In this document: positions 4,789 to 37,189 of the stretch, one piece after another | Numbering within the stretch: the first letter of the stretch is position 1 | Layout of the letters: every line of letters begins with the position of its first letter | NCBI GenBank assembly: GCA_032718475.1 | Contig: JAUCBJ010007091.1 | Span: 1-64,000 of the forward strand | Direction of reading: 5' to 3' | DNA length: 64,000 nt | From: Nemertoderma westbladi | Taxonomy: Eukaryota > Animalia > Xenacoelomorpha | Notes under the pieces: model-generated | Told to the model about the DNA's origin: nothing | The model's database searches: none | The model's input: only the letters and a program-made list of their open reading frames with translations | Position numbers and translations under genes: made by a program

Positions 4789-4853
4789 GCCGGGGTTGAA
4801 CCCACAACCTCCGTGAGATGTGAATTCAATATAACCACAATATAACCGGTGGG
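4789..4853 (-). mobile_element. 5' head fragment of a tRNA-derived SINE (same family as 35812-36090)
   Basis: Reverse complement reads CCACC..GTGGTT..ATTGAATTCACATCTC..GGTTGTGGGTTCAACC, matching the head of the SINE at 35812. Confidence 0.6.
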
Positions 4854-5000
4854 CTCTGAACCAAGGTGGAACAAGTGTCAGATACCGTCAGATCAGATCA
4901 GATCAGATAAGGACAGACGTTTTAGCCATCCTAGACAGTCATAGCTGTCTGCATCGTGTTAATACACAAAGTAAAGGAGTGAGATCTGCTATAAATATAA

Positions 5001-12386: not shown

Positions 12387-12706
12387 AGTAGTATATATTA
12401 CATGGAGACGGCATCAGAGTCACCCGTAGCCCATCATTACCGTCCATTTCTAGTACTGCAGCCAATCAGAAGCCACCATTTCAACCTTTTGCGGTGGTCG
12501 TTATTATTTCAACCAATCAGATGACAGCATTTCATCCGTAACCATGGCAACTTCTCAAGTTCCCGCTTATTCCGCTAGAGGCGTTATTAGTCACCTAACG
12601 CTAGTACTGCATCCAATCATAAGCCTTTATTTTACAGGTGTTCGGGTGTCTACACTTAGCATCAGGTAACTTCTATTATTTTTCAAATCGCAATTTTTCA
12701 CCAACC
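12387..12706 (+). repeat. Polinton left TIR (320 bp)
   Basis: Reverse complement of 32236-32555 with about 6 mismatches counted by eye. Confidence 0.97.
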
Positions 12707-13311
12707 ATTGCATATTCATCTTCGCGTAGCCTAACCTCTCGATGCATGGCTAGCATCCAACACATCACCACTCAATCCACAGCTGTTACCCACCCACCAA
12801 CCAACCAACAGCGATACACCCACCGATTATTCCCCTTTTCGCCACATCACCACCGCTGTATACTGTATATGATGATGATGACAACGTAGCCAACTACACA
12901 CATATTATATATTATATTATATCGATTGCCAACTCAACGATTATTTACCCACTGCTAGCCACTGCTACTCCTCGACGGCTGTCACCAAACCAAGCAGCCT
13001 ACCAGTCCAGCGGTAGGATACGTGAAATTCCGCCACGTTTCCAGCTACACGTATACGAACATTTCCATAGTTACTCAACCTTGACCGTAATTTTTTTTTT
13101 TATTGCACTGTACTGTACAGTAGTTCCCTACCGGCTAATCAACCAATCAATAAACCGAATTTAGGCTATTTTTCAGTTTAAGACCTGTATTATTTTTGAA
13201 AATATCTTATATATATAATCTCTTGCTTTAATCGCAATTAATCATTTGTAATGGTTTTAGTTTAAAAGTTTTTACTTAGTTTGTTTGATTTACAATAAAA
13301 TAAATTAAATA

Positions 13312-13761
13312 ATGTCTTCTGATTCCAATATGGTTATGCCAATGGTAAGGCATTCATTTTTTGCAGAAGATGGTCAAGCCTATATTGTTATTGATTATAC
13401 AATTTACCGTCAGGGAGATGATAAATATAAAATTGAATTTTCTGAAAAAGCCAGGAAAGTTTTAAGCTCAATTGATATTGATGCTTCTGATAATAGTATT
13501 CATCTTTTAGATTACAACCTGAAAGCTGAGCATGGGGGAGGAAAATTAAGCAACATTTTACTATTATCCATGATAGAGGGATTTATTGTTATTACACAAT
13601 ACAACGAAGCTGGTGAAAAGTTTGAAATACGGCTAAATCGGCATAGCCCCTACGAAATTATGCCTTTCTTTATTGTAATGATTTCAAAAGAATCCTTTGT
13701 CGAACCTGAAGAATCAGCGGATAATGTTGAATATGTTGATAATAATATCATTGATTCTTGA
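13312..13761 (+). CDS. Polinton hypothetical protein (149 aa, acidic C-terminus)
   Basis: Open ATG ORF with AT-rich leader, first gene of the left cassette; no motif recognised. Confidence 0.7.
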   Translation: MSSDSNMVMPMVRHSFFAEDGQAYIVIDYTIYRQGDDKYKIEFSEKARKVLSSIDIDASDNSIHLLDYNLKAEHGGGKLSNILLLSMIEGFIVITQYNEAGEKFEIRLNRHSPYEIMPFFIVMISKESFVEPEESADNVEYVDNNIIDS

Positions 13762-13926
13762 CTTTTCCCTCTATATTATAAATATTTTATGATTATATAT
13801 AAAATTTTGTTGTTTTTAAATAATCGAAAATTGTAGTAGTATTTGTATATACAGTATAACAGTTTTGTTTGTTGTTGTTGTTGTGTATTGTGGTAATTAT
13901 TTTCAATTTACTTTAAAATTTGGAAA

Positions 13927-14379
13927 ATGGATATTTTAAATGAAAAATGTCCAGTTTGCTATTCTAAGTTATTGCAACAACATCGAGATTATTATAAATG
14001 TGAAAATAAACATGCAACTTGCGTACAATGTATTGCACAATATTCCGAAATGAATAATTATTGTTCTAAAATTTGTCCTATTTGTCGCGCACCCATATCT
14101 AAGTTTAATATAAAGTTGGCAAGATACCAACCCTATTATTGGAAAGAGCTTCGCAATATAACTTATATTTCTGCGAAAAGTAATGATCCGGGAGATTTAT
14201 TTACAATATTGGAGAATATTTTTTATAGAAACGTAGTACGACGCTGTTGCTACTATATTCCTTATTTTTTTAGCAGCGAACATAAAAAAATCATTAGCGC
14301 GAAATTTTCGGGAAGTGATTTCCAATCCGCCGATTTTACCTATCATTATTTCGCGTATAAAGATGCTCACCATGCTTGA
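13927..14379 (+). CDS. Polinton RING-finger (C3HC4) putative E3 ubiquitin ligase
   Basis: CPVC-x13-CENKH-x2-CVQC-x14-CPICR. Confidence 0.85.
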   Translation: MDILNEKCPVCYSKLLQQHRDYYKCENKHATCVQCIAQYSEMNNYCSKICPICRAPISKFNIKLARYQPYYWKELRNITYISAKSNDPGDLFTILENIFYRNVVRRCCYYIPYFFSSEHKKIISAKFSGSDFQSADFTYHYFAYKDAHHA

Positions 14380-14595
14380 AATTACATCGGTCTATACTAT
14401 AATTGGAAATAGCACCTTTTGCTGCAGCGAGCGTCACATACTGTAGCGGCGTCGTATGTTAATTAAATATACAGTACTCTAATATTGTAGTTGCATCAAT
14501 TATTGTTATATACATAGTAATGGTGTTGGTTTATTGATATTGATATTGATATTATATTATATTGTATTGTTGATATATCTTAATAATAATAATAA

Positions 14596-15276
14596 ATGGC
14601 TGACTTTAATTCAGGTCCATATAATTTAAATTTTCAAATGGGAACGAGTATGATAATTTCAGGGCCATCTGGCTCCGGAAAGTCTACATTTGTTGGCAAT
14701 TTAATTAAACACAAGAATGGTTGTTTCAACGAAGCCCCCTTGCGAGTATTGTATTGTTACGGGAGCAATCCTCCGACTATTCCAGGTATTACTCACCTTT
14801 ACAAAGGCTTGCCTGAAAATATAGATAGTTTAGTGAATAGTCGAGATTTATTAATTATAGATGATTTGTTAACAGAAACTGAGTCCAGTACAGCTTTAAC
14901 TGTATTGTTTACTAAGGTGGCTCATCATTCCAATATATTTATTTGTTTTATAACGCAAAACATGTTTTACGGTGGGAAGCATAACCGCACAAGATCAATT
15001 AATAGCCATACTTTAGTATTAATGAAAAATCCGAGAGACAGTCTATCGGTTTTAAATTTCGCGAAGCAGATGTTACCAGGGCAGACCAAATTTTTAGTTG
15101 ATTCCTATCAAGATGCGACAATTGAACCATTTTCACATTTCATAATTGATTTACGACAGGAAACACCCGAACATTTAAGATTTAGATCTGATATATTTCG
15201 TAATCATAATTGTTACATTAAAAATTACACTGACTATAAACGTAGCGAAAATAATAATAATAATAATGATAAATAA
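14596..15276 (+). CDS. A32/FtsK-like genome-packaging ATPase
   Basis: Walker A GPSGSGKS, Walker B LLIIDD, ITQN, KNPRD motifs typical of Polinton ATPases. Confidence 0.95.
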   Translation: MADFNSGPYNLNFQMGTSMIISGPSGSGKSTFVGNLIKHKNGCFNEAPLRVLYCYGSNPPTIPGITHLYKGLPENIDSLVNSRDLLIIDDLLTETESSTALTVLFTKVAHHSNIFICFITQNMFYGGKHNRTRSINSHTLVLMKNPRDSLSVLNFAKQMLPGQTKFLVDSYQDATIEPFSHFIIDLRQETPEHLRFRSDIFRNHNCYIKNYTDYKRSENNNNNNDK

Positions 15277-15313
15277 TTAATATTTTGTAACAATTTTCAA
15301 TAATGTTGCAACA

Positions 15314-15697
15314 ATGAATAGACTTGTGCAGAAATATCATAACGAACTGGAATTTCTACGCAGCGCTACCCCTCAACAAAGAACTTATTTTATTAACCAT
15401 ACCGCCAGTAACGAATTAATACGGCTCATTGTAAATACTGCATTAAATGTTCTAAAAGGTAATGTACAATTGACCCCTCATTCATTTAGAAATATTCGCC
15501 GCTATAAGAAGGTATTGAAATCACTCAACCGTAAAACAAAAAATATATCAAGTTACAGAAAAAAGTTAAGCAATCAATCTGGAGGCATACTACCGTTTCT
15601 AATACCCTTACTCGGCATTGGTGCGAAACTTGCCGCGAGTGCCGGTGCCGCGGCCGCGGGGGCTGCTATTGCGAAAAAAATTAACCGTGGACGGTAG
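15314..15697 (+). CDS. Basic core-protein precursor, adenovirus pX(mu)-like C-terminus (Polinton PW-type)
   Basis: K/R-rich body followed by QSGG|ILPFLIPLLGIG, compared with MRGG|ILPLLIPLIAAAIG in adenovirus pX. Confidence 0.75.
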   Translation: MNRLVQKYHNELEFLRSATPQQRTYFINHTASNELIRLIVNTALNVLKGNVQLTPHSFRNIRRYKKVLKSLNRKTKNISSYRKKLSNQSGGILPFLIPLLGIGAKLAASAGAAAAGAAIAKKINRGR

Positions 15698-15703
15698 GTA
15701 ATA

Positions 15704-15874
15704 ATGGTTAAAACGGGAGTAACATTTAGAAAATTATATTTAGTATCGAGTAAACCGTTAGCTGCTGATTTAAAACCACAAGATATACCTAGAGTAAATA
15801 CTACAAAAAGAAAACCCTTTAAAACATCAACTTCGAAGAAAATAATTAAAAAATTTCAGTTGTTCTTACGGTGA
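15704..15874 (+). CDS. Small basic Polinton protein (56 aa; not in the ORF track)
   Basis: ATG 6 nt after the previous stop; MVKTGVTFRKLYLVSSKP...KKIIKKFQLFLR*; fills the gap before the integrase. Confidence 0.55.
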   Translation: MVKTGVTFRKLYLVSSKPLAADLKPQDIPRVNTTKRKPFKTSTSKKIIKKFQLFLR

Positions 15875-15925
15875 TGCCCTTTATAAGAGATTTGAATATA
15901 CATATTACTTGCGGTTGTCGAAAAG

Positions 15926-17017
15926 ATGCCTCGCAAGATGAAACCGATTTTAAGCCGAAGCTTAGACAAAAAACTGTTAAGAATTTATTTAGATCCTTCA
16001 TCCCCTGCGGGATTTGCAAGTGTTGCAAAATTAGCAAAAGCTGCAAACATCAAACCGGCGCAAGCCCAGAAATGGTTGAGCGGACAAAAGACATACACCC
16101 TTCACGCTCCACGTAGACAACATTATCCAACATCTAAAATATTTACGGGAGGCATAAAAGATATATATATGATAGATCTGGTGGATATGCAGCAATATAA
16201 GTCGCAAAATAATAATTATAACTATATATTAACGTGCATTGATGCCTTCAGTCGGCTTGCTTTTGGCTATGCTATGAAAACAAAAAAGGGTGTTGAAATT
16301 ATTAGTATATTGCAAAAAATATTCCAGAAAGGAAAACCAAACAGAATCGCCACGGATCAAGGTTCTGAGTTTCTAAATAAATCTGTAAGGAAATATTTAG
16401 ATACGTTAGGTATACAGTATTACGTAATGTATTCTATGAATAAGGCGGCTATTGTCGAGAGATTTAACAGAACCTTAAAAACAAAGATGTTCAAAATTTT
16501 CACGCAAAGGGGAAATAATATTTGGATAAAAATTTTACCTAAGCTTATCTCGGCTTATAATAGGTCGTATCATAGAACAATACAAATGACACCTATTGAA
16601 GTTAATAAATTTAATGAAACTGAATTAATGAATAGATTATATGGGAAATATAGACAGATAAATCACAAGAAAATAAAATTTAAAGTTGGAGATACAGTAC
16701 GATTATCTATTGCTCGTACTGCTTTTGCTAAAGGCTATCGAGAACAATGGACACGTGAATTATTTATTATTCATCGGGTCAGGTTGGATAGAGTACCAGC
16801 GGTAATGTTCGATATTAAGGACAGCACCGGAGCTATAATAAAGGGCTCATTTTATTCTCACGAACTTCAAAAGGTCCACCCGAATAATAATATTTATCTA
16901 GCAATTGACAAAAAAAATATTGGCAAACTTAAAGAACGTGTACGCAATGGGAAGAAAGAATATTTAGTCCGATTCATCGGATCCAAGAAACAGTCCTGGG
17001 TACAGCATATTCAATAA
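15926..17017 (+). CDS. Retroviral-like (rve) DDE integrase with C-terminal chromodomain-like region
   Basis: IDLVDM / ATDQGSEF / VERFNRTLK catalytic triad; FKVGDTVR; KGY..QWTRELF; NGKKEYLVRF..SWV. Confidence 0.97.
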   Translation: MPRKMKPILSRSLDKKLLRIYLDPSSPAGFASVAKLAKAANIKPAQAQKWLSGQKTYTLHAPRRQHYPTSKIFTGGIKDIYMIDLVDMQQYKSQNNNYNYILTCIDAFSRLAFGYAMKTKKGVEIISILQKIFQKGKPNRIATDQGSEFLNKSVRKYLDTLGIQYYVMYSMNKAAIVERFNRTLKTKMFKIFTQRGNNIWIKILPKLISAYNRSYHRTIQMTPIEVNKFNETELMNRLYGKYRQINHKKIKFKVGDTVRLSIARTAFAKGYREQWTRELFIIHRVRLDRVPAVMFDIKDSTGAIIKGSFYSHELQKVHPNNNIYLAIDKKNIGKLKERVRNGKKEYLVRFIGSKKQSWVQHIQ

Positions 17018-17266
17018 GCTTAGGTTTATACTGTATATTAATTCATTTTGGTCGCATATGACCGTAATTAATCAATAATATTAACTCGAATGATATTACT
17101 ATATCTATAGTTCATCCGCTTTAAATAAAGCCAGTAAAATATTGATCCCACGCATATACTGTAGAAGATGCTGGCAATGAACGTGGTCACAGATGTCTAT
17201 AATTTAACATTATACTGTATGTACAAAGGAGTCAAGTAGAGAGAGCGAGCTTAAATAATAATAATA

Positions 17267-18139
17267 ATGGCCACAGATACATATATCACTCTACTGTCAG
17301 ATAGCTCATTGAACACTTATCCCAATAATAATCCTAGTGAGTTTACTGTTGATTTAGCCGAAGAATTATATATTGGTCCAAATGCCAAAATTGGACTTGC
17401 CGAACTTCAATACCAAGCAACATACAGTAATATTACGCTGCAAACTCAAATTTCGCTGTCAATCGGGGTAGATGCAAAACATGCCAAATTATATAGTTTA
17501 TTTCCTGGTATGCATAACTCTATTCAAGTGATTATTGATGATATAAATAAACTGTTTAATTCTGAAGCGAAATATAGAGATTTCGAATTCATTTTTAATA
17601 CAAATAATTCTAGAATTAAATTTAAATTTCCTAAAAAGTTGAAAAAAATACAATTAAGTCTACGCGGCGATTTAATACAAATTCTAGGCTTAAAACCGTT
17701 ATTGGATCGGAATCATCCGGATATTCCGAATTGGGATATATACAGTACCACTACAGTAGATGAATTAAGCAATATAGAACAGCCGATATTAATTTTAAAT
17801 TATAGCGGGCCAAAAATTTCGGAAATTGGCATTTTAGATTTTCCAGCTCCCACAAATATAACACGTAATAAAGACACTATCTTTATATACACAGATATTA
17901 TTAAGAGCTCATTTGTTGGCGACGCTTTAGCTCCGCTCTTAAGAACCTGCCCTTTAACGCAATTAAATCGAAAATATATTAATCACGAATACGAGAGCAT
18001 TTGCTATTTCCCATTGTTGAATAAAAAACTAAAAACAATCTTAATTACTTTACGTGACGGCCAAGGCCAATTAATTAACTTCAGCGGAGGTCGCACTGTT
18101 ATAACACTTAAGTTATTACGGGGTGGCGGCGATGGATGA
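17267..18139 (+). CDS. Minor capsid protein (penton, PX) paralog 1
   Basis: ITLLSDSS..YPNNNPSEFTVDL, IGLAELQY, IYTDII..FVGD..APLLR, LRDGQGQLINF. Confidence 0.9.
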   Translation: MATDTYITLLSDSSLNTYPNNNPSEFTVDLAEELYIGPNAKIGLAELQYQATYSNITLQTQISLSIGVDAKHAKLYSLFPGMHNSIQVIIDDINKLFNSEAKYRDFEFIFNTNNSRIKFKFPKKLKKIQLSLRGDLIQILGLKPLLDRNHPDIPNWDIYSTTTVDELSNIEQPILILNYSGPKISEIGILDFPAPTNITRNKDTIFIYTDIIKSSFVGDALAPLLRTCPLTQLNRKYINHEYESICYFPLLNKKLKTILITLRDGQGQLINFSGGRTVITLKLLRGGGDG

Positions 18140-18989
18140 GTTCTACGTAAGGCTGCCGAGTAACTCATGTCCAATTGATTTTCCCCGCAATAGCGCTAGT
18201 AATTATCAGATAAATTTCCACGGCGCCTTACCTATAAATCCAAACGAAAACTGGGTGGTAGGTATAAAAAGTATATTTTACTTAGCAACGTTGCCGTCCA
18301 TGTATAACAATGTAGAGAATGTTATTTTATTAAAAAAAGGGAAAAAAATTTTTGAGGATACACTTCCATCTGGTTTATTCTACAGTATCAACGACATTAT
18401 AGATTATTTTAACACGGGGACATTGAAAGATAAATTACAAATAGTTGAAAATACTCAGCAAAATAGATTGCAATTTATTTTAGGGAAAACTGTGCGAGAG
18501 TTATTTATAGGTCAACAATTAGCCTATTATTTTGGAATTACTGAAAATAATCTCGGCGCGAATTTAAATCCAAATTTTAAAATTATTTTGAAGACGAAAA
18601 ATAATATAAAGGGTTATTTAATAAAGGTTATCGGAAATGGAGAAAAAGCTTACCAGATGGTATTTTTATGCCCTCAACCGCCCAACTCTATTCCAGAACC
18701 TAAATCGAACATGTACGTGACTACTAATATAATTGAAAATCAATATATTAACGACTTTGGTTTAGCTTTACTTCGTCGTGTTGCGATACCTGATGATGTG
18801 AAATATGGTAGCGTAATAAATAAAGAATTTGTCAAGGATACAATTCATTATATCCCTGTAAAAAAATAATATAAGATAACATACATTCATATTGAAATAA
18901 CAGACAAAGAAGGAAAAGATTTGAATTTTGAATACGGGACAACTTGTATTACCTTACACTTTAAACGAATAAATTCAAATGGATTCTGA
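18132..18989 (+). pseudogene. Minor capsid protein paralog 2 with one premature TAA (18867-18869)
   Basis: FYVRLPSNS..FPRNSASNY, WVVGI, YVTTNII..ALLR. The same frame continues past the TAA as YKITYIHIEITDKEGKDLNFEYGTTCITLHFKR, the conserved penton C-terminus. Confidence 0.85.
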
Positions 18990-19539
18990 TTTATTTCAAA
19001 GATACAGTAAACCTCAATATGGGGGTTCAGACTCTAATCTTGCTGTTTTTAAAGGCGGAAGAAGTACCAGAGGCTCGACGCAAGTTCCTGTTTTTCGTGG
19101 TGGTTCATATATTGACCCTTACGGTCAACAAATTGGTGCATTTGGTCCAAACTTAAAACAACGTCGTTTTCAGCGTTATCGTAGAGGTATGCGGGCAAAT
19201 CAACACGGAGAAGGTATATTTACAGACGCTTTATCTACATTGAAAAAATTTGGTAAGCCATTAGCTAAAAAAGTTTTACAGAAAGCTTTACCATTTACCA
19301 CAAAATTTATGAGACAACACGTAATACCAAAAGGTAAGCGGGTCTTACATCAGCAGGCTAATACGGTTATTAATAAAGCATTAAATAAAATGAAACCGTC
19401 AACAAGGTCGGTTGTAGAAAAAGTTTATAGAGATTTAAAGCGACCCGCTAGACCAATGTCTATGAACATACATCATCGACGTAGTAAAAAGAGAAATATA
19501 AAAGGCAAACTGAAACACTGCGAAAAAAGTATTTTTTAA
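18979..19539 (+). CDS. Basic virion protein with GG cleavage-like sites and an amphipathic helix (Polinton PZ-type; pVI/pVII-like)
   Basis: QYGG, FKGG, FRGG, QHGEG|IFTDALSTLKKFGKPLAKKVL; lies immediately upstream of the MCP. Confidence 0.7.
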   Translation: MDSDLFQRYSKPQYGGSDSNLAVFKGGRSTRGSTQVPVFRGGSYIDPYGQQIGAFGPNLKQRRFQRYRRGMRANQHGEGIFTDALSTLKKFGKPLAKKVLQKALPFTTKFMRQHVIPKGKRVLHQQANTVINKALNKMKPSTRSVVEKVYRDLKRPARPMSMNIHHRRSKKRNIKGKLKHCEKSIF

Positions 19540-20364
19540 TAATGTCAATTATTAAGGAATTAGATTTATTTTCTACACAGCCAATACAGACTGAATTTAA
19601 AGCAAAACATTATGAAACAATTTACCCCGTATCTAATCTCAGAAGTGAATCTAGGGAGGTCACCTTCCTTGTACCCAGATCCAATGAATTCTATACGAAA
19701 CTGCAAGACGCGTTATTAATTACAAAATGTACAGTACGTTGGGATAGACGACTTGAAAACTCCCATATTTATATGCTGAATTACCCAGCTGAAACTATGT
19801 GGAGTGATATTAAAATAGACCTTAATGAGAAGCAGGTTGAAAATAGCAATAACCATTATTTCTACAAGTCGTACTTATCCAATTTATTATTTACAACTTA
19901 CGAGGATAAAAATGGGCTACTGGGTGCTGGTGGCTTTCATCAACCTTTATCTGAACACGGAAATGAAATTGATCCCGGCGCGCATCCTATTGCTGATGCC
20001 TTTAGTAAACAAATGCAATTTGTAAGTGGATTGACGATTGATTTTGATACTGAAACTAAAATAATACAACCTGGGTATGATTTAAGAATGCATTTTAGAA
20101 AAGTATCAAATTCGTTTATTTTTAAAATCACTCCAAACGCAAACGCTGTGACAAATCTTCGACTAGAATTAGATGAAATAAAAATTCTAATCCCTAGAAT
20201 GGAGGTTAATCCGGTAATAGAAAGCAGTCACCTAAAAGGTTTAGAGAGCTACGATATTGAATATCAATTTCAAAAGAAAGAGGTGACTACATTTACTATT
20301 CCAGCTCAAACCACAAATTACACTCAAACAAACATATTTGATGGTAAAAAACCCAAATTAGTTA

Positions 20365-22149
20365 CAGTCCAGCTCACCAACAGAGTGCCATCGGATCCGA
20401 TCTGAACCGATCGGATCCAACAGCTTCAAACACTTTCAGACAAACTCCAACAGTCCAACAACTTCAAACAGATTCAGACAGTTTCAAACAGATTCAGACA
20501 GTTTCAAACAGAATCAGACAACTTCCAACAACCTGTCAATCACTCCACCCACACTCAACCGCAACCCCAACTCAACTCCCATCTTCTTGCACGCAGATAG
20601 AATGAAAGCGTTTGAAACTACTAAAGGAACTCCATTCATAAAGCCACAATAACGACAGAGTGGACTGGCCACTGGCGGCGCCCTTGAACATTCACACTGT
20701 AACTTAAGCTGACCTGAAGGAACAGCCCATTAGTGAGGTTGGTATTTCTCTTTATTCCTGCCGCTATCTTTGAATAACACAATAGCAGAAAGCTAACCAG
20801 TGGTCTACCCCCAATACAAGAAAGACAAGTTGGCTACCATTGAAATGAATGGGGAATGGAATTCTGTGTTCACATACTAATGTTGCTTTGGGTTGGTCTA
20901 GAGCCATACAATAGAGCTTTACGGAAATACACTTCCAAAGAGCCAAGCAGTGGCGGTATAGGTCCAAAATGCCCATGTAGAATTTCTTCGAATAAGGCTC
21001 AATTTCTTTAAGTTACATTAATTAAAATACTGATAAATATATTTTGCTTTTCGCAGGAGGGACAGTATCCCCCTCTACAGTTAATATAGTGTACGTACAT
21101 GTGTTAGTTATATCGTTGCGTTTATTTATATTTATACAGGTTTGGATATGATCTCTACTAGTTTGATTTTTGTTTTGTCAATTAATTAATTGTGCGGTTA
21201 ATTTGTCAATCACCGCCTTAATTGGCTACATTGCTTATTGTATGAATGAATATAATTAGTTATTAAGACATTATTTTAATTAGTATCTGGTGTGATTAGG
21301 TCTACCTTTTACATAACAACAGTACGTCAATGGCGGATATACTACTACTACTGTACTACTAAGTCGAGCGAACTCGGATAGTGGAAATGAGATCCTTCCA
21401 GGCTTCCCGATTCTCCATAGTTGTCGCAATTTCGTTTCTCCAAAGTTCAGAGAAGTTTCACTCATTGTAATTATATTTACTGTTTGCTTAATCTGTTTGT
21501 GTTTATATCTGTTTATGTGCAGTATTTAGTGCCCTATGTCAAAGAAACTAATATATTTATAGCATTATTTACATTTCTAATTAAATTAAGGAATTAAAAA
21601 CGTGTTGGTGTTATTATATTCATTTATCGGAATTTATATTATAGGAATTTATTATTCGTTTATGCATTCTAGTTAATTAATTTATATAATTAACGACATA
21701 ATTATGTAAATAAAAATTGTTAAATGAAACAAATCTTTATTTCGGTTTATAATTGACAATAGCACACCCTCACAATCACTTCAAATTGAGAGTTAAAGTG
21801 ATTGGCATTCTGTTAATGAGCTCCGCTTTTGTAAGGCATTGGCAAATTCCAACAAATTCCGATGGCGTCAAACATCTTCAGACAACTTCAAACAGTTTCA
21901 GACAATTTCAAACAGCTTCAGACAACTTCAGATAGCTTCCAACAACATCCAACAGAAATTTCAAACACTTTCAGATGGATTTCAGACAGATTCAGATGGG
22001 CTCCAACAGACTAAACTTGTTGGAAATATTTTCTCCAACAGAATCAAACAGTACTAAATCTCTGTAGGTTAGCATTGTGCTTGTTTGAAGCTGTCGGAGT
22101 GTGTTGGATCCGATCGGATCCGATGGCACTCTGTTGGTGAGCGGGACTG
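20365..22149. mobile_element. Non-autonomous TA-targeting (Tc1/mariner-type) DNA transposon, 1785 bp
   Basis: TA TSD (20363-64 and 22150-51), ~38-bp TIR CAGTCC(A/C)GCTCACCAACAGAGTGCCATCGGATCCGATC, and subterminal 10-bp TTCAGACA/TTCAAACA repeats. Confidence 0.9.
21342..21450 (-). mobile_element. 3' tip of an RTE LINE (family of 45809-46860) inside the MITE
   Basis: Near-identical to 45809-45907, including the (TAG)n tail. Confidence 0.75.
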
Positions 22150-22590
22150 TATTATTGGCTTCATAACAAATAACGCTTATTCGGGAGAATTAATTAGCAA
22201 TCCCTTGAAATTTGAACATTTTAACCTTAGACGCGCGGAACTGATTGTAGACGGTCTTCCAGTAGGGGGTGTAATATACGAACCTAATTTTACAGATGGA
22301 ACATATATTTTTGAGTATACTCAATTAATGAAGAACATTAATACATATATTAACGGTTATGGGGGTAATAATATAGACCATGAAACCTACTTAGGTAATT
22401 GCCCCATCCTATCCTGGGACCTAACCGCTGACGGCTACGTTAGAGATCCGCAACCGTCGATATATACTAACGGTCAATTAAAATTAAGATTTGCCGAACC
22501 GTTGGTTGAAACCATAAATGTAATCGTTTTTAATATTTATGATCAATCATTAAGTTTAAATAGCAGGAAAGAAATACATATCGATTAAGT

Positions 22591-23043
22591 ATGTTATCTA
22601 CAGAGGACCTTGATATGTTTCCAGTGGGTGGTCACTATTTGGGCGCGTTTCCAGCTAATAAATTACCTAAATTAGATAATAATAAGCAGCAGGATTATGG
22701 CTTGATAGTAAATACCGATAAACAGCATCTACCCGGGGTTCATTGGATTGCTATATATATACGAGATAATGAGGCCGAAGTATTTGACTCGTTTGGACCA
22801 AAATATCCAAACAGATGTATCGAAAAATGGCTTGAGAAAAATTCCGCAAGGTGGCGTACTACATGCAAACAATTTCAAGACCCCAGGAGGACCACATGCG
22901 GCCTATACTGTCTCTATTACTTAGTAAATCGTATTCACACAATCTATCCAATGAGAGCGTTTACAAATAATGTGGAAATCAATGAAATTATATTATATAA
23001 ATGGCTTGTTAATTATTATAAATTAAACCAACAAGCGTTGTAA
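22591..23043 (+). CDS. Adenain-like (C5) maturation cysteine protease
   Basis: IVNTD..PGVHWIAI, FDSFG, QFQ..TTCGLYC (His-Asp-Gln-Cys). Confidence 0.95.
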   Translation: MLSTEDLDMFPVGGHYLGAFPANKLPKLDNNKQQDYGLIVNTDKQHLPGVHWIAIYIRDNEAEVFDSFGPKYPNRCIEKWLEKNSARWRTTCKQFQDPRRTTCGLYCLYYLVNRIHTIYPMRAFTNNVEINEIILYKWLVNYYKLNQQAL

Positions 23044-23078
23044 TTAATCATTTAGCTTGCTTTTGTTTATCAGATAAA

Positions 23079-23669
23079 ATGGATAATATTATTTTTGTTG
23101 ATTTTCAATATTATAAGATAGACAATAAAGAGTATCCGGTAGTATTTAAAGAATTTGCAATATACGATTCTAATTACACCAAAACTAATGTAAAGACGTT
23201 TTTAATTAAAGGCCCGTCTAATATTAAGTTATCAGCTTTAGATGCAGCTCACGTAAACAATTTACGAGATATGGGTTCTCACTTGCCCTGGGACTACGGG
23301 GACATTTCTCAAGATGACTTTATAAATTATATGAAGAGACATTTAAAATATAAAAAAAACATTCATGTATTTGGGTTGATGAAGCGGGCAATATTAGTTT
23401 CCCAACTCGATGTTCTCGAGCCAAATTCGGTGGAGAAATTGGGAATATATAAGCAATATCACGATTATTTAACACCTTGTCGATTTCACGACCGATTCAC
23501 TACAGTATGCGCGTTCCACTTAAACATAAGGGATAACTGTCTGCGATACTGCTCAGCAAAACGTGTTGGCTGGTTTGAGGCTCCACACTTTTTCATGAGA
23601 AAGCGTTTAACTGCGACTGATGATGATGATAAACAGAAAGAAATAACTGCGGTGGAAGATGTACTGTAG
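23079..23669 (+). CDS. DEDD/DnaQ-like exonuclease-fold protein with Cys/His cluster
   Basis: IIFVDFQ...FKEFAI, LPWDYGDI, HVFG..K, C..H..C..C. Resembles a Polinton accessory family; the ExoI D-x-E reads D-F-Q. Confidence 0.55.
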   Translation: MDNIIFVDFQYYKIDNKEYPVVFKEFAIYDSNYTKTNVKTFLIKGPSNIKLSALDAAHVNNLRDMGSHLPWDYGDISQDDFINYMKRHLKYKKNIHVFGLMKRAILVSQLDVLEPNSVEKLGIYKQYHDYLTPCRFHDRFTTVCAFHLNIRDNCLRYCSAKRVGWFEAPHFFMRKRLTATDDDDKQKEITAVEDVL

Positions 23670-24029
23670 GTTTACTCTAAGCATGTAATGTAATGTGATG
23701 GGATAATATAATTTTATTTTGGTGATGATCTTGATGTTAATATAAAAATATAATAAAATATAATTTTTTTTTACAACAAGTTCTCTAAAAGAGTCAATCG
23801 CGGTAGGTTAACCATGCACATTTAACAATATGACGTAGACGTAACATGTACAGTAAGTATTCTCGATATCGTTCTAATATAGATGTACTGGTATTGTGAA
23901 ACAGCCTATACATCGCAAACTAATAACACATACAGTAGTTGACTAGTAATATTAGTCAGAAAATGCAACATAATCTGTATAGGGTGTAATGATAACCTGT
24001 TGGTACCGGTACTGATAAATTATAGGCCT

Positions 24030-25140
24030 ATCTACAACTGTCATCCACTTTATCAGTACCGGTAGTGTTTTACTCTTCCAACACTGTAGTTTCTGTCTAG
24101 TGGTATCGGTACAGCAGTAATCTGATGCATGCAGGGGTCTCACATATAGGGATTAGATCACCTATCCAAACAATACAGTACTGCTGTACTGTCGCTGTTC
24201 TTGATGTAACATCATAATCAGATAAAGCATACTGATTTCCTTTGATTAGCATTGTACTGCAGTACCGGTACGACAGTACCTGCAGTAACAAACTAAACCA
24301 ATGTATACAATATCGAGAGCTAGTTACAATCAGATGTGTACGCAGTCAGCCACGTTGCGAGGATGCGGTCAACCTCACAGCTAGCCTCGCAGCTCCTATC
24401 CACAACTGTCATCCACTTTATCAGTACAGCAGTAATCTGATACAATAGCATTTGTTTTTTTCACCTATAAGGATACTGCTGTCATGATCTGGATTACACG
24501 CAGGGGTCTCACATATAGGGATTAGATCCCCTACCTAAACAATACAGTACTGCAGTACTGTCGTTGTTCTTGATGTAACAGCATAATCAGATAGAGCATA
24601 CTGATTTCCTTTGATTAGCATTGTACTGCAGTATTAATGTAACAGTACCTGCAGTAACAAACTAGGCTAATGTATACAATATCGTGAGCTAGTTACAATC
24701 AGATGTGTACGCAGTCAGCCACGTTGCGGGGATGCGGTCAACCTCACAGCTCCTATCCACAACTGTCATCCACTTTATCAGTACAGCAGTAATCTGATGC
24801 AATAGCATTTGTTTTTTTTCACCTATAAGGATACTGCTGTCTACCCGAACCTTGATTAGCATAGGCCTACTGCTGTCATAACCTAGATTACATGCAGGAG
24901 TCTCACATATAGGGATTAGATCACCTACCTAAACAATACAGTACTGCAGTACTGTCGCTGTTCTTGATGTAACTGCGTTGTCAGATAGAGCATACTGATT
25001 TCCTTTGATTAGCATTGTCCTGCAGTACGGTACCGGTACCACAGTATTAATGTAACAGCACCCGCAGTAACAAACTAAGTCATTGTATACAATATCATGA
25101 GCCGGATATAATCAGATGTGTACACAGTCATGGGATGCGG
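24030..25140. repeat. About 3 tandem copies of a ~370-390-bp unit in the Polinton convergent intergenic region
   Basis: TCTCACATATAGGGATTAGATC at ~24138, ~24507 and 24901; ACAACTGTCATCCACTTTATCAGTAC at ~24034, ~24402 and ~24759. Confidence 0.9.
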
Positions 25141-25144
25141 TCAA

Positions 25145-25372
25145 CCACGCAGTCAGAGCAGCATCGCTGCCAGCCTCGCATCCAGCCAGCCTCGCAGCCA
25201 GCCTCGCAGCACGCAGTCAGCCTCGCAGTCAGCCTCGCGGCATGCAGTCAGCCTCGCGGCACGCGGCAGCCTCGCAGCCAGCCACGCAGCCAGCCTCACG
25301 GCGCGCAGCAGCAGCCTCGCAGTTGATCATGCAGTCAGCCAGCCAGCTACGCAGCTAGGCACGCAGTCAGCC
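25145..25372. repeat. GC-rich 12-bp minisatellite (GCAG[C/T]CAGCCTC)
   Basis: Direct repeats visible; the motif also occurs inside the 370-bp units. Confidence 0.85.
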
Positions 25373-25460
25373 CGTGAGAGTCATACTTATTCAAACGAGG
25401 TTAGTTTTCCCTAACTACCGATAGATTGATTGAAAAATAATAATGTTTAATTTTCACCTT

Positions 25461-26006
25461 CTAATCACCAACACCTAAAGTCACAACACCAAACATTAAT
25501 AAATAATTAACAAGTTTACTAAATATAGGGTAATAAATGTGAAATTTGCTAGGTGAACACATTAAAGTACATTTACCAGTATGAAAGCAACAAATGACTA
25601 CGGTATTATTTATTCTTATTTTGCAATTATTAAAAATTTCAGGTTCATATATAACTTGAAGTTGTACATTATCAAAGACAACATAAAACCCGGTATTGTT
25701 TATCAATAACCTATAGACTACAGACTTAATACTAAAAATATAAGTACATAAATTAACAGATTTTAAAATCAAATTAATACTAGTTTTATCAAATATATGC
25801 TTTTTTACTTTTTGGAAATTATACTTACTGCCTAATAATGTAATACGACCATTTTTAAATATTAATAATGTGGCACCAAATATCTTATATATAAACTGAT
25901 TTGGTTTGAGTATGTGTTTACCAGATAATTGATTTTTTAATTCTTTAAAATTAATCGCTGACACTTGCTGGCAACTTACATTCTTATTGACTATCTGATA
26001 GTTCAT
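25461..26006 (-). CDS. TATA-box-binding protein (TBP)-like protein encoded by the Polinton
   Basis: Two-repeat TBP signature: IVN..S, ATLLIFKNGRITLLGSK and YEPEIF...VICCFHTGKCTL; 181 aa, the size of a TBP core; overlaps the pPolB stop. Confidence 0.8.
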   Translation of the reverse strand: MNYQIVNKNVSCQQVSAINFKELKNQLSGKHILKPNQFIYKIFGATLLIFKNGRITLLGSKYNFQKVKKHIFDKTSINLILKSVNLCTYIFSIKSVVYRLLINNTGFYVVFDNVQLQVIYEPEIFNNCKIRINNTVVICCFHTGKCTLMCSPSKFHIYYPIFSKLVNYLLMFGVVTLGVGD

Positions 26007-29000
26007 TGTTTGGTTCCCGATAAATAGGTATATTGTTTTTCTTTATCGGTTTTTCGACCTTTGTTTGATAGTGACCCCAGGGAAGCGAATGATTTTTATT
26101 AACCCAATAAAGTTTATCGTCAAATGCGCTGAGAGCAAACTTGTCTCGTGCTATAGTGTACACTTTGTGTAATTTGCTCTGAAACTGATGTGTTTCCTTG
26201 GAAATTTCTTCGTTATCGTAATATGCCCTCAAATAATCTTCGTGACAAATATTTTTATCCACGACAGCTCTTGTTATTCCTTTCGCACGTCGTATGTTGG
26301 ATTCATTGAATTCCAAAATTGAATATAATTTTGGTCTTAAAAATACTGCTTGTTTAATCTCTCGTGAGGCTAGTTCGTCTTTACAGTAATAGAGCCTGGA
26401 TTTATTTTTATCGCTGTAGAGAGGGTGATCCTTGGGGTAATTGGATGTATCTAGAATATTATTTTTAATTAAGGCTTTTAAAAAATTATTCTGCGATGTA
26501 TTATAGTAACAACCTATTAAAGAGTCCGTGTCTGATGCTACAATTTCAATTCGGCAGTTTAATTCTTTCTCAATAGGTAGCAATTTATCGTAATACAGCT
26601 GATACATATCCAATTTAGCCAAGTCCAAGACAGTACTACCTATATAGACCGGCTTATCGAGAGTTACAGAGTCTTTTACTAATAAATGTCCCGATAAGGA
26701 ATCGTTATAAATCATGAAATTTTCATGATTTATTCGTTTGACTAATTGGTCACATTTTTCTTTACTATTAGCGATACGAAAGTTACATCGATCTCTTATC
26801 TTTTCAATCGTTTTTCCAAATAAAGAATTGTTCAGCAATTTCGCGACAGCTGTTTCAATATAACTTTTTGCCAGCCGCCTTTGATTAATATTAAAATCGA
26901 TGTAATTTTTAAATACAAATTCTTGTTGAAAAGAATATAATTTATGTAGTTTAGTAACAATTAATCCGTGTTTTATATAAAATTTTAACAGTTTTAAATT
27001 TACATGATAGAATTCTTTATCGAATTGTGTCAACATAAGTTTCGGTGCACACATCTTATACTTGCTATTAGTGCCTCTTTGTTTACATACATGATTATAT
27101 TGTTCCCTCATATATGGTGAAAGCATTGTCTCATTTATACTTAAATGTTCTGGGGCTAAGGGTAGTTCTAATGTACGATCGTGAATATCTTTGGGATATT
27201 TCAAATCGCAAATTAAGAAAAACCCAATATCACCTTCAGTATTCAAGATTTATCAAATAGTTTATTAGTTCTTCTGGAGCAGCATTCTCTAAATATGTAA
27301 CGTTGACTTGTTCAAAACCTGAAACAGGTAGCTTTTTACTTAAATTACCAGAATACAAGGAATTAAAATCTATATTGAAAATATGACACTCTTCCTTGCT
27401 TGGATCATAATTATCAGTATCTGGTATATTTGATTCTATGTAATGCTTTCGACAGAATGAAACCCCTCCTCTAATAGATGCTTCAAAATCTCTATATGTT
27501 TGGTAATCTTTTATTAATGTTAACTTACATTTATTGTATTTCAGGGCGCAATCATAAGTGAAAGCTGCGATACTGCAATAATAAACTACTTCTAATTCGT
27601 AGTTTTGTCTACACACTCTCCTAAAGTTCTCAAATATATCAGCGAGGAGACAAACATCGAGTTTTAAGTATGCTAAAAGATAATCCTTGAGATTCACACA
27701 GTCAAACTGACTCCATGATGCGTTGGCAAAACTATATTCCTCGGGTGTACAGGTATTTTGTGTTAATTTACTATAAAATTTGTCTATTGATGGTAATTTC
27801 GAATCATTGAATTTATTTAAATCTGTCAGATACTCGTAGGGAAATATACCTTTTCGTTTAATTGTTGCATTATTTAAATTTGGATAAAAATATTTCATTT
27901 GCTGTTCAGTAATTGGTAGAACTGATGTTATATCCTCGCTGTCTATATCCTTTGTTGAACAATCAACTAAAGTACTTAGGGAAAAGGATAAAAATTGATA
28001 TGTGTCTAAGACACGTAGCTCGATCTTAGTTTTTTCATCTTTAACTGGTATATGCATGCTTAGTGAAATATACCTTTCAGAATTTTTAGGGATTACCTTT
28101 ATATCCCAATCGGAATATTTATTATTGCTAAAACCAACTTGCAAAAGAAAATGCAAATCGTAGAGATTGCAGTTGTGTGCAGCGAGTATATACATGTGTC
28201 GTTTCAACGATAAAGAGCGGTTACATGCGTTACAAGCGGCCGCTATATAGTTACCAGTAATATGTGAGTGATGTTTGTTTTTCTCAGACTTATCCTTAAA
28301 TAAAACATTGCAATAAAAGCAAGTTTTAGCTTTCCAAAAACTTAACTTATCTACATCGTTAAGTATAATCTTCTCTCGCGTATGGGTTTCTGCCCACTTA
28401 TATAATTGGGTGATGTCATTATATACAGAGTCTAAAAAGTCTTGAATACAGTTGTTGTCGATTGTTTTTGTAAAGGTCTTCAAATAAAATTTTGGTGGAT
28501 TGATTAATTCGGTACTAGGAACAATTAAATAACTTACAGCGCATGGGATATGATTCTGAATAAATTTACTGTTGATGGCTGGCTCCAAAATAGATTCTAT
28601 GTCAAAATATATTACAAACAATGCTGGTAATGTTCTGTCTAAATTTCTAAAGCTAATGTGAGTTCTTTTTTCAGACGGTAGCTTCTCAACTTGACTTTTA
28701 CCTCGATAACAAGCAAGACGGTGACGTTCTAGAACATCCTTGGTGTAGAAAGGCGCCAAACATCGTTCACAAAAATGCCTACCACGAGTATGAAGAGCTC
28801 TCGTATTCATCAAACGATTCAAGTTAGTTATGCAAACATAATGTGATTGTTTACTCGTATTCTTATTTTTTACAAGTAATATATTCAATAACTCTTTATC
28901 TGGAGTGATTTTACTAAATGGTGCCTGTCTTAATATAGATACTCGATTGTTGTCGTAGAGTAATAAATTAATTATATATGCTGAATTCTGTTTTTCAAAA

Positions 29001-30007
29001 AGTTTAATTGCAAGCGGCCATTCTGTTGGATAATCTTTGTTGCCGTTGTCAAAAATGAAATGACTCATATAATTTTTGTACTGTGAAGTACGGTTTTTGT
29101 TTATCTTCACTTTGCTACTAAATTTTATAGCTATAATTGCCCATTTAAAACAGTCATTATCAGCCGTTTGTATATTTATAACACATTGTTTACACGCTAG
29201 AGCCTTAGGTAACTCCATATATCCATGCCCCTTATATAGTAACGACCTACACTTGGATTCAGCTACTTTAATTTCTACTCTTAATAAAGATTTAACACGC
29301 CACCCTGAGCCACGAGTGTTAAATATGGCTATTTTTTCCATTAATTTTTCTAGTACATACTCAAACCATGTGTCAAAACTTTCATGTGAATCTACGGTAT
29401 TAACTGCACCACCTGAAGAACTAAAATAGAAAGCTTCTTCTTGATCACCCTCTGAAAAATGTGATCGATACATGAGTATATTCACACCTAGCCAGGGTCT
29501 AAGTACATTCATTTCGCTAAGTTTTCCTAATAATAAAGTTTGGATGTGAGGTAGAATTTTAATTAATGTTGAATGAATATCAGGAAAATCTTCATCATTT
29601 GGAAGATTGTAAACATAGATTTCTAAACGGTTATCGTGTGCGGCTCGTTCAATGTTAAAAATTGATGAACCTTGACCAGATTTCAGTCTTTTTCTAGATA
29701 CGATAGTATTGTTTTGGTTCCGTTGTGGTGGTGGTCTAACATGATAATAACGTTGGTGACAGTCGTGACGTAAGTAATTCTCATATAAATACTCTTTATT
29801 ACAAGTAGGGCAAGTTTTTTCATACACGCAAAACTTCATTTCTTTACATCCTGTAGTCGTTTCATGTCGTTTACATATTTCTTCACGTGAACATTTCACT
29901 CGACAATTAAAACAATTGTATTCTTCAAAATGAGATTTCACATGTGTTAAATAATTTCGTTTAGAAATTTGATGAGGACAAAATGGACATTTCAATTGTT
30001 TATCCAT
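25984..30007 (-). pseudogene. polB: Protein-primed family B DNA polymerase, split by a 1-nt frameshift at ~27245
   Basis: N-terminal Zn fingers, GSGW, DNDCFKWAI..SHY (vOTU-like), Exo YFDIES / AHN..YD / YLKLDV, EndoVII-like HHSHITG..CNACN, DFNSLY, KLLNNSLFGK, SDTDS, RPKLY, AKGI. Confidence 0.96.
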
Positions 30008-30255
30008 CTCTTTATTATCCTAAAAACAATTTAAAATTAATATGAATATTGTTATATATATAATCAAAAAATTCATAAGCTACTCAACACAAATAAAATA
30101 TAATATCTAAACTTTAATTAATTTAATATTTTCAGAATGAGCTCGAATGAATCAGTTGAGCTCTTTATATATATATATATATATATATATATTTCAAGTT
30201 TCTACTTATACCAACCAATCATAAATAACAGTTACATTGTAAACTAATATCATAA

Positions 30256-30530
30256 ATAAAGTTGCTTTTACAACTGAATTCTTTATAATAAAATCAAGTC
30301 TAAACCAAGATGTGTATAATGCGTTTTGAATTTTCATTGATAAAGTAGGTTTTACATGCAAATGTTTTATTATGGTGGTGTAAACTCATGCATTTACATG
30401 CGAATGTTTTATTCCTAATCCCGTGCTCACATTAAATATAAACTATCACCAATATTTACTCAATAAAGTCACCTTTACATGCAAATACTTTATAATAATC
30501 ACACTTTGTGATAAAAAGTTACCTTTACAA
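30256..30530. promoter_or_regulatory. Degenerate ~41-bp repeats with ATGCAAAT octamers upstream of pPolB
   Basis: ATAAAGT..TTTACA(TGC) recurs at ~30256, 30340, 30381, 30463 and 30511; ATGCAAAT at 30356-30363 and 30479-30486. Confidence 0.5.
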
Positions 30531-30574
30531 GTCAGTGTGAAACTGAAAAAGAAAAGTCTCTAGTTAATAATAAA

Positions 30575-31618
30575 TCAATCTGATACTGTTTTTATATGTT
30601 CCTTATTGTAATCTGCTACCTCTTCACTTGCTTTTGTAACTTTTATTTTCTTTGTAGATATAGAATCATTGTTGGGAATGGAAGATGTTTGAGATGTAGA
30701 TCTGCGCTTTCTATCACACGAGGTCTCTTCGATGTATGTGTTTGGATTAAATGTGGATGAAACTACTTCTGGAAATGACTTATTAACCTTAAACTTCCAA
30801 GTTGGTGGATATAGAATCACGAAACCGTCTGCTATATCAGTTGATGAAACCTTTAACATCATATCGTAGAGAAACTCTATATATGGTATGTCTTTATCGT
30901 AATGTAACTGTAAATATTTGCTTTCCTTGTCTGTAATAATTACTTTTTTTTCTTGTACATTTATTTTTACTTTAAGTCGGTCAGATAAAGCTTTATCATC
31001 CGTATCTAGCTCTGAAAAGACACCTTCGTTACTAATTTCATAATTCCATTCATACCACAATGAATTTACTTCCGATGCTGTTAAGTTAAACCCATTATAA
31101 TACCTAAGACCAATAGCATCAGAATATCTAGCTGAAATCTCCCATAGTCCCATATAAGTCGCTCCTTTATATTTGCTTACAAAACCAACAAAAGATGGGT
31201 TGGTTAAATTAACAACATAACACTGATTTATTATTTCGAGTGGTGGTGATAACAATTCTAATATTTCTGTCTTACTCTGAAGCAATAAATTAATGAGTGA
31301 TTTGTTTAGAATTTGACATTTGCCTTGCTTCTGAATATATACGTTTTCAGTAATAACACAGGTGGAAATATTTAACTTTCCTCTTGTAAATTCTATATTA
31401 GGATAAATATTACCTCTTGAAACTGGTGATTCCTTTTGTCGGTTGAATAATATTTCTAAGACGTCTAGAAGGTAGAGTGTATCCTGGTAAGAGAAGCACG
31501 TTGTTACATTGCTATCGCTTGAGAGTAATATAAAGTACTTGCCATAAACAATACTACAGGTATATTTATTAAATGTAAATTTCCAAGTATTGCTTGAAGT
31601 TTTTTTAAATAAATCCAT
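30575..31618 (-). CDS. Polinton protein with a PC4/p15-like ssDNA-binding motif and basic NLS-like tail
   Basis: FVSKYKGATYMGLWEI...GFNLTASEVNSL resembles PC4 VSVRDFKGKVLIDIRE...GISLNPEQWSQL; RKRR near the C-terminus. Confidence 0.6.
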   Translation of the reverse strand: MDLFKKTSSNTWKFTFNKYTCSIVYGKYFILLSSDSNVTTCFSYQDTLYLLDVLEILFNRQKESPVSRGNIYPNIEFTRGKLNISTCVITENVYIQKQGKCQILNKSLINLLLQSKTEILELLSPPLEIINQCYVVNLTNPSFVGFVSKYKGATYMGLWEISARYSDAIGLRYYNGFNLTASEVNSLWYEWNYEISNEGVFSELDTDDKALSDRLKVKINVQEKKVIITDKESKYLQLHYDKDIPYIEFLYDMMLKVSSTDIADGFVILYPPTWKFKVNKSFPEVVSSTFNPNTYIEETSCDRKRRSTSQTSSIPNNDSISTKKIKVTKASEEVADYNKEHIKTVSD

Positions 31619-32235
31619 AATTAGAATGAAAACTATTTTGAAAAATAAAAACTAAATAAATGATTATTAGATTGTAAAACTTCTGTTTATATGGTTGCTT
31701 TAATACAGCAGAGTGACTTACAGTGAGGAATATAGTAGATTCGTGTAACAGATGCAACGTGTACAGCTAAATTTATTACATTAGCGTGAGTTAGAGAGTG
31801 AAATAGCAGTAACGTGTAACAGATGCAACGTAATCAATGCTAGTCCTATCATTCTAACTTATATTCAACTTAGTTGATCGATCAGATACATCGATAAAAG
31901 AAATCGATTATTATTAATAGTCGAATTAATGTATTCTACGCTATAGTAATTATGTTAAGGAACTAGAAGCTATTTATAATCATCTGCTACCAGTGATGAA
32001 GATGAAGAATTCAATGACTATGGTATAACTCAGATATTTATCGCCTTTTTCTCTCGAGGTTGGATGGAAGAGTGATTGGTGAGTTGTGAGGAGTTATATC
32101 AGTCCCGGGTTCGAACCCTGTTGAATATTTTGTTATCTGAAAAATTGCAAAATTAAATTTAGTTACTAGTGAAAAATAGCGATTTGAAAAATAATAGAAG
32201 TTACCTGTAGACACACCTAGCATCTGTAAAATAAA

Positions 32236-32555
32236 GGTTGGTGAAAAATTGCGATTTGAAAAATAATAGAAGTTACCTGATGCTAAGTGTAGACACCCGA
32301 ACACCTGTAAAATAAAGGCTTATGATTGGATGCAGTACTAGCGTTAGGTGACTAATAACACCTCTAGCGGAATAAGCGGGAATTTGAGAAGTTGCCATGG
32401 TTACGGATGAAATGCTGTCATCTGATTGGTTGAAATAATAACGACCACTGGTAAAGGTTGAAATGGTGGCTTCTGATTGGCTGCAGTACTAGAAATGGAT
32501 GGTAATGATGGGCTACGGGTGACTCTGATGCCGTCTCCATGTAATATATACTACT
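32236..32555 (-). repeat. Polinton right TIR (320 bp)
   Basis: Inverse of 12387-12706; followed by the TSD AGCAAC; inner end partly duplicated in tandem (~32168-32312). Confidence 0.97.
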
Positions 32556-37027: not shown

Positions 37028-37155
37028 TTTATATATATATATATATATATATATAATCAAAAAATTCATAAGCTACTCAACACAAATAAAATATAATATC
37101 TAAACTTTAATTAATTTAATATTTTCAGAATGAGCTCGAATGAATCAGTTGAGCT

Positions 37156-37189
<34 letters not shown>

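Follow-up and report, generated by a model that had tools for sequence, protein, structure and literature searches.

The window, that is the whole stretch of 64,000 nucleotides (nt) from Nemertoderma westbladi that was analysed, contains a Polinton/Maverick copy in which an open reading frame (ORF) of 181 amino acids (aa) lies directly behind the gene for the protein-primed DNA polymerase B (pPolB). This ORF (25461..26006, minus strand) is a genuine gene of the TATA-binding protein (TBP) fold that belongs to the Polinton; it is old, has been inherited together with pPolB and is no recent capture from a host. The reading that we prefer, at a probability of about 0.55, is that the divergent, stand-alone TBP recognizes relaxed TATA-like boxes in the cassette that comprises the packaging, integrase and capsid genes, brings in host TFIIB and RNA polymerase II (Pol II), and so works as a late-gene switch.

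Identity and fold of the TBP-like protein

The ORF is intact and intronless and overlaps the stop codon of pPolB by 23 nt. An earlier note on this DNA had recognized both TBP repeat motifs in it, an identification that is borne out by the Pfam family TBP (PF00352), which matches the ORF with an E-value of 5.7e-9 (score 36.1 bits, curated cut-off 22.9 bits) in two stretches, corresponding to the two repeats. The same Pfam family scores above its cut-off in all 15 family members (the query and 14 relatives). A profile of 11 relatives from which the query was left out finds the ORF at an E-value of 4.6e-18, as its sole match in the window, and 35 of the 36 matches of the family profile in the PDB are TBP sequences (best E-value 4e-30).

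An AlphaFold2 model that was built on the family alignment (predicted local distance difference test, pLDDT, 65; predicted template-modelling score, pTM, 0.53) has the two-lobed TBP saddle, the very feature whose absence had been named beforehand as the outcome that would speak against the gene. The top Foldseek matches of the model in the PDB are TBPs (E-value 5e-9, template-modelling (TM) score about 0.58), and viral TBPs are among its matches in BFVD. Structural alignment with TBPs gave Z-scores of 11-13 over about 165 residues, compared to 7.6 for the next fold; in the best TBP match (Z 13.2) 172 residues were aligned with a root-mean-square deviation of 5.0. A look-up in the Atlas of the homologue from one of the related loci (L009) likewise returned a TBP (score 0.96, TM 0.86). 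The fold predicted from the single sequence was uninformative (pLDDT 42).

Searches with the single sequence remained blank because the protein is so divergent: they yielded none out of 41 candidates and no match in 1.84 billion representatives, and further searches gave one unrelated PDB match and no viral contigs. Relatives were therefore sought via loci anchored on the polymerase.

Diagnostic residues

Residues were compared in an alignment anchored on the canonical viral TBP of locus L083. In what we take to be the yeast TBP numbering, the positions that match N69, F116, E186, E188, F190 and F207 are invariant in all 15 family proteins, and are N7, F50, E121, E123, F125 and F141 in the window protein. 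The equivalent of F99, the first intercalating Phe, is a Pro in 15 out of 15 (Pro35 in the window protein). Three of the four DNA-intercalating Phe that mark the TBP family are kept (F50, F125 and F141), as had been proposed from the window protein alone, and this can now be described as a family trait. The symmetric Asn/Thr pairs of TBP read the central bases of the box. In the window protein the first Asn is kept, the second (N159) is Ser and the two Thr are replaced by Leu and Met, the latter at the equivalent of T215; the T124-equivalent is kept in none of the 15 proteins.

Both glutamates of the C-terminal lobe that contact TFIIB, E121 and E123, are present throughout the family. By our own mapping they are positions C.L3.2 and C.L3.4 of PMC7221094, which describes these two residues as contacts for TFIIB and Brf. 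The part of that paper drawn on here also states that the first of the two is kept in only about 40% of viral TBPs, and that a virus with a TBP nearly always brings along a TFIIB of its own. No match to the TFIIB family was found among the 21 ORFs of the window and 50 unassigned ORFs of the related loci. Since both glutamates are fixed and this set of ORFs gave no TFIIB match, the Polinton TBP-like proteins would, judging from their sequences, rely on the TFIIB of the host as adapter.

Relatives, selection and descent

The related loci, 82 in number and most of them short, were retrieved by similarity to the Polinton-type polymerase. A TBP-like ORF is present in 14 of them, and in 8 of the 10 loci that extend at least 7.5 kb behind the pPolB match. 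In these loci its distance from the polymerase match ranges from 0.4 to 7.3 kb, both strands being used, and gene order differs between clades, so that a fixed adjacency of polymerase and TBP genes is not a general property of these elements.

Sequencing runs of DNA from a single organism, belonging to three studies, contain near-identical sequence in the form of many diverged copies. The copies of the TBP-like gene differ by 22 synonymous and 18 non-synonymous changes, 27 of the changes being at third positions, which indicates purifying selection (ratio of non-synonymous to synonymous polymorphism, pN/pS, about 0.20; p = 6e-7). The ratio is only rough, because it uses the best-supported 40 of 64 variant sites, from copies in four runs, and pools them over subfamilies.

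The trees of the TBP-like proteins and of pPolB from the 15 elements have their main groups in common (Mantel rho 0.78, p = 0.0002), and in both trees the window protein is found on a long branch, its identity to the relatives being 20-28%. In a tree with only two outgroups, the TBPs of L083 and L084, the 15 Pro-bearing proteins are located on one side of a 99/97 split. Because relatives are present in 14 of the 82 loci and the TBP tree mirrors the polymerase tree, the gene is no recent host capture. A recent pseudogene capture, absent from sister Polintons and with dN/dS near 1, had been put forward as what would undo the proposal; sister elements carry the gene and pN/pS is far from 1.

Locus L083 is a 44.7-kb viral contig, probably of a large DNA virus, with its canonical TBP beside a ribonucleotide reductase and a PolB that is split by an HNH-like insert. 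The TBP of L084 (2731-3318) is near-canonical and has all four Phe. It is encoded on a Polinton-like fragment (ATPase, small basic protein) within a bacterial genome bin, where the fragment is probably a contaminant, and it could represent an intermediate or a separate capture.

Promoter boxes and a putative late-gene switch

From the fold, the residues, the selection, the co-inheritance with pPolB, the boxes in the relatives and the TATA-plus-initiator sites we infer binding, partners and timing as follows. The non-structural genes, including pPolB with the TBP gene directly behind it, would be read first, by host TBP/TFIID at canonical promoters. The TBP of the element would then bind relaxed TATA-like boxes in front of the genes for packaging, integrase and capsid, and its intact C-lobe would recruit host TFIIB and Pol II, such that a late-gene switch would arise without a viral RNA polymerase. 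TBP's C-terminal lobe holds the box by its 5' half, and the N-terminal lobe by its 3' half; the latter lobe also binds TFIIA, TAF1 and Mot1. The diverged N-lobe, with one Phe lost, may make the 3' half of the box less strict and let the protein escape these host regulators; the point about Mot1 has been made for viral TBPs (PMC7221094, in the part cited).

Boxes were searched for 15-110 nt before the ATGs and judged by empirical p-values against AT-matched windows. A clade-specific upstream box was identified in six of eight TBP-bearing relatives (empirical p 0.003-0.013). It reads ATAAAC, mostly after C or T, in L009 (9 of 12 genes), L023 (7 of 13) and L045 (9 of 11), and TTAAGC in L014 (8 of 12), L019 (7 of 14) and L021 (5 of 9). 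Most of the boxes stand 35-100 nt before an ATG, mainly that of an ATPase, integrase or capsid gene, and their distribution follows the TBP clades. Neither of two loci without a TBP match has a significant box. The TTAAGC box contains TAAG, which we take to be the baculovirus late motif, and sometimes appears as TATTTAAGC, close to the TATTWAA box of herpesviruses.

Four non-structural genes of the window element, and none of its nine cassette genes, are preceded by a canonical TATA that is followed after about 30 nt by TCATT. The TCATT is presumably initiator-like. These sites are located before an ORF of 347 aa (31659..31691, minus strand), before pPolB (30136..30183, minus), before a 149-aa ORF (13210..13246, plus) and before a 196-aa ORF (23017..23052, plus). 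The combined pattern has 11 matches, a number reached by none of 100 shuffles; this test overstates the case because the pattern was chosen after inspection and the 11 matches include overlaps and a duplicated right end of the element.

Several observations weigh against a late-gene switch. Two TBP-bearing relatives, L035 and L043, are without a significant box, and the six box-positive relatives are not independent, since they represent only three clades; the controls are two loci only, and these are possibly incomplete. The box is found before pPolB in L045 and before the TBP gene itself in L009 as well, which blurs the split between early and late genes, and a host forkhead site would likewise be matched by ATAAACA. 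The cassette genes of the window element have no significant box: the best de novo words fail correction, and TATAA, found before 6 of the 9 cassette genes at p = 0.04, was one of six patterns tried. As for the protein, the window member has lost the Asn159-equivalent and both Thr-equivalents, its C-lobe stirrup is modelled at pLDDT below 50, one listed variant among the copies changes codon 121, and its place in the family is unsure because of the long branch. The earlier idea of a viral promoter factor for the structural genes is plausible and gains from the boxes in six of the eight relatives; a private box on the structural genes of the window element itself did not reach significance.

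Alternative roles

A protein of this type might also act as a decoy or repressor, binding canonical TATA or soaking up host TFIIB or Brf and thereby silencing early promoters or host genes. We consider this unlikely, although the combination of invariant TFIIB-contact glutamates with a diverged N-lobe would suit such a function, as would the presence of canonical TATA before four early-type genes and the lack of a private box in the window element. The clade-specific boxes of the relatives, however, precede genes that need activation, and the three remaining DNA-intercalating Phe are kept in all 15 proteins, both of which speak against a decoy.

Alternatively, the saddle could bend DNA at the AT-rich termini and help in replication, integration or packaging, in which case it would be no transcription factor. 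Saddles like that of TBP do occur in proteins outside transcription, e.g. in rolling-circle initiators (the fold at Z 7.6), and the gene overlaps the polymerase stop and is inherited with pPolB. The TFIIB-contact glutamates would have no evident use in such a helper despite being invariant, and the position of the gene relative to pPolB varies widely, which makes this role rather improbable.

The earlier note had combined the TBP-like gene with a PC4-like ORF, upstream of pPolB on the same strand, into a two-part viral basal transcription module. The position of this 347-aa ORF is confirmed (30575..31618, minus strand), and the two genes indeed flank pPolB on one strand. Its PC4 likeness is not: the ORF is five times as long as a PC4 domain and holds, at residues 130-190, a pattern that is PC4-like by eye (S-K-Y-K-G ... 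G-F-N-L) and not above chance in the tests that follow. Neither the whole ORF nor three pieces of it gave a Pfam match, PC4/SUB1 (PF02229) included, and the ORF had no PC4-type PHROG match, no relevant PDB match and no homologs among 3028 candidates. Against a profile of 21 PC4 domains the ORF scored -0.7 bits and ranked 2142 among 5000 shuffles; the sequences of this profile come from a single bacterial phylum, and it may overlook members that are very distant. The same profile detects a tandem PC4-domain gene in locus L065 at an E-value of 1.9e-10, which shows that elements of this class can carry a genuine PC4 gene. This gene (6226-6849), on the strand opposite to the Polinton polymerase, is the sole clear PC4 gene among the 82 loci, and no TBP was found within the 7.6 kb examined of that locus. 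A nearby ORF (4778-5224) looks like Bcl-2 and is presumably a member of that family.

One TBP clade has small ORFs of unassigned family and with a beta-beta-beta-alpha look, singly or as two paralogues (hhalign probability 92%), directly before the TBP gene and partly overlapping it. They are present in L014 (2105-3235), L019, L021, L024, L028, L029, L035 and L055. Such a neighbour might be seen as the missing partner in a module, but the small ORFs have no detectable link to the 347-aa ORF and no PC4 profile match, and by these profiles two other TBP clades (L009/L013/L015/L023 and L043/L045) have no such neighbour. The Atlas look-up of the small L014 ORF gave nothing usable (score 0.76). The possibility that the 347-aa ORF consists of four tandem repeats of the two small ORFs was rejected, as no internal repeat scored above shuffles. 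Between the two copies of the 347-aa ORF in the window there are gaps and 10 changes, of which 2 are synonymous and 8 non-synonymous; these differences are too few, and the copies too decayed, for a call on selection. Judging from its sequence, the 347-aa ORF probably encodes a separate early protein and not a TBP partner. Of the proposed module the TBP half holds; the PC4 half lacks a profile signal and the related TBPs lack a detectable counterpart of the 347-aa ORF. Although the 347-aa protein may have a PC4/PUR-like fold of very remote kinship, we regard the module as a whole as very unlikely.

T-runs stop RNA polymerase III (Pol III). The boxed genes are long, AT-rich and protein-coding and are full of such runs, which makes it very improbable that Brf1/Brf2 and Pol III are recruited instead of TFIIB and Pol II, even though the same glutamates contact Brf1/Brf2 (PMC7221094, in the part cited). 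Finally, the recent capture of a host TBP fragment or pseudogene without a role for the element can practically be dismissed: the window copy of the element is itself decayed and the cell-like TBP of L084 suggests that fresh captures may occur, but the protein shares about 19% identity with cellular TBPs, its ORF is intronless, intact and under constraint (pN/pS as given above), and its homologs in 14 loci form a tree that matches that of pPolB.

Gene content and state of the Polinton copy

The whole copy, of about 20.2 kb, extends over 12387..32555, with AGTAGT termini and a perfect 6-bp target-site duplication (AGCAAC) on both sides. Its left terminal inverted repeat (12387..12709, plus strand) measures 323 nt and has 98% identity to the right one (32233..32555, minus strand). 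Besides these hallmarks of Polinton/Maverick elements, the gene set of the group is present, with a protein-primed PolB, an rve integrase, an adenain-like protease and an ATPase. The pPolB gene (25984..30007, minus strand) is represented by ORFs of 923 and 380 aa, owing to a frameshift near 27240; the C-terminal ORF is found at 25984-27126. The 347-aa ORF, which has no family match, has a low-complexity tail with a basic RKRR stretch.

All other genes are encoded on the plus strand. The non-structural 149-aa ORF (13312-13761) is followed by a RING-finger-like ORF of 150 aa (13927..14379; below Pfam cut-offs), the packaging ATPase (14596..15276; P-loop, weak Pox_A32 match), a small basic core-like protein (15314..15697; weak Adeno_PX match, homologs in the relatives) and the retrovirus-like integrase (15926..17017; rve, E-value 5.3e-12). 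Then follow two putative minor capsid genes (17267..18869), a putative major capsid gene (19542..22588), the adenovirus-type, adenain-like maturation protease (22591..23043; Peptidase_C5, E-value 1.1e-5) and the non-structural 196-aa ORF (23079-23669). The capsid labels derive from position and resemblance only, the candidates being ORFs of fitting size and position that have no family match, putative double and single jelly-roll genes. Between the genes for the small basic protein and the integrase there is a 57-aa ORF (15702-15875), the start of which resembles, by eye, a small gene that the relatives have in this position; a profile missed it, and no ORF of the window was matched by the profiles of two further small gene families from the relatives.

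The copy is broken, as besides the frameshift in pPolB the putative major capsid gene is interrupted. The insert in the latter, about 1.7 kb (approximately 20400-22130), has 70-nt inverted ends and 10-nt tandem repeats and resembles a non-autonomous DNA transposon. The region 24100-25400, on which the 196-aa and TBP genes converge, contains three direct repeats of 370-390 nt and an array of GC-rich 12-nt repeats, and the length of this region differs in copies among sequencing runs. The right 2.5 kb of the element are duplicated 7 kb downstream (37033-39565, 97.7% identical), with a different flank and behind pieces of a Pao/BEL retrotransposon; the duplicate is without polymerase or TBP, and its 347-aa ORF is broken. 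The Polinton is flanked by pieces of Pao/BEL and other retrotransposons. Two further ORFs of the flanks are presumably an intronless Rac-like GTPase (9803-10405) and an SLC6-like transporter (60141-62309). Taken together, these flanking sequences very likely come from an animal host.

Comparison with known TBP systems

With the cellular TBPs of eukaryotes and archaea (PF00352; 1ytb, 1mp9, 1cdw) the Polinton protein shares the two-lobed saddle over a core of 180 aa, three Phe, the first Asn and the YEPE stirrup with both TFIIB-contact glutamates. It differs from them by its low identity (about 19%), the invariant Pro in place of the first Phe, the replacement of the second Asn and of both Thr, a shortened N-lobe stirrup and hairpin, the lack of an N-terminal extension and its location on a mobile element.

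Giant viruses have their own RNA polymerase. The TBPs of Nucleocytoviricota and of mirusviruses are, like the Polinton protein, viral two-lobe TBPs with a diverged N-lobe, and proteins of this kind are among the BFVD matches; for mirusviruses the part of PMC10132985 cited here reports a TBP in 59% of the genomes. Those of Nucleocytoviricota mostly come with a TFIIB of the virus and in the majority lack the first glutamate (PMC7221094, in the part cited), whereas the Polinton family has both glutamates fixed and gave no TFIIB match.

In print, a gene labelled 'TBP' is found in the legend of Fig. 5 of Starrett et al. 2021 (PMC8502044), for MELD viruses with adintovirus-like PolB. Unlike the present data this is a legend label only, and residues, spread and promoters are not analysed in the text of that paper, as far as consulted. 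The literature that was searched yielded no study of a Polinton TBP (main texts of Polinton papers, PMC11071296 and one supplement of PMC8502044); figures, bioRxiv supplements, Repbase and subscription papers may hold an annotation. The Polinton TBP thus appears to have been barely noted beyond a figure label, and its role in a late switch is plausible. The window adds a deep-branching member with evidence for selection to the family, yet one in a broken copy, with no clear box of its own and no support for a PC4 partner.

The system that works most alike is the late system of the beta- and gamma-herpesviruses, as described in the part of PMC12529657 cited here, e.g. the viral TBP ORF24 of KSHV (Kaposi's sarcoma-associated herpesvirus) with its TATTWAA late promoters. 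Like the one proposed here, that system has a TBP mimic for the late particle genes of a nuclear DNA virus that possesses no RNA polymerase of its own; the non-canonical box of its late genes has a candidate counterpart in six of the eight relatives, and no significant one in the window element. The herpesvirus protein, however, is a multidomain viral TBP with a Pol II-binding domain and five partners, whereas the Polinton protein is a bare core of 181 aa, and none of the late-complex partners is among the Pfam matches of the window ORFs; the Polinton TBP is not a member of the herpesvirus late system.

The question of how Polintons, which lack an RNA polymerase, schedule replication and the genes of the particle would be answered directly by a self-encoded TBP with intact TFIIB contacts. 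Tentatively, and at less than even odds, a broad lineage of animal Polintons may even possess the smallest known viral late switch: a bare TBP core that has kept the surface for host TFIIB, exchanged a Phe for an invariant Pro and co-evolves in each clade with a private box, by which each family of elements would express only its own capsid and integrase genes through host Pol II. The invariant change from Phe to Pro and the clade-specific boxes would also be a natural series for how TBP reads DNA, and the Polinton protein would represent a third design of viral TBP use, beside the TBP and TFIIB pair of the giant viruses and the multi-protein complex of the herpesviruses.

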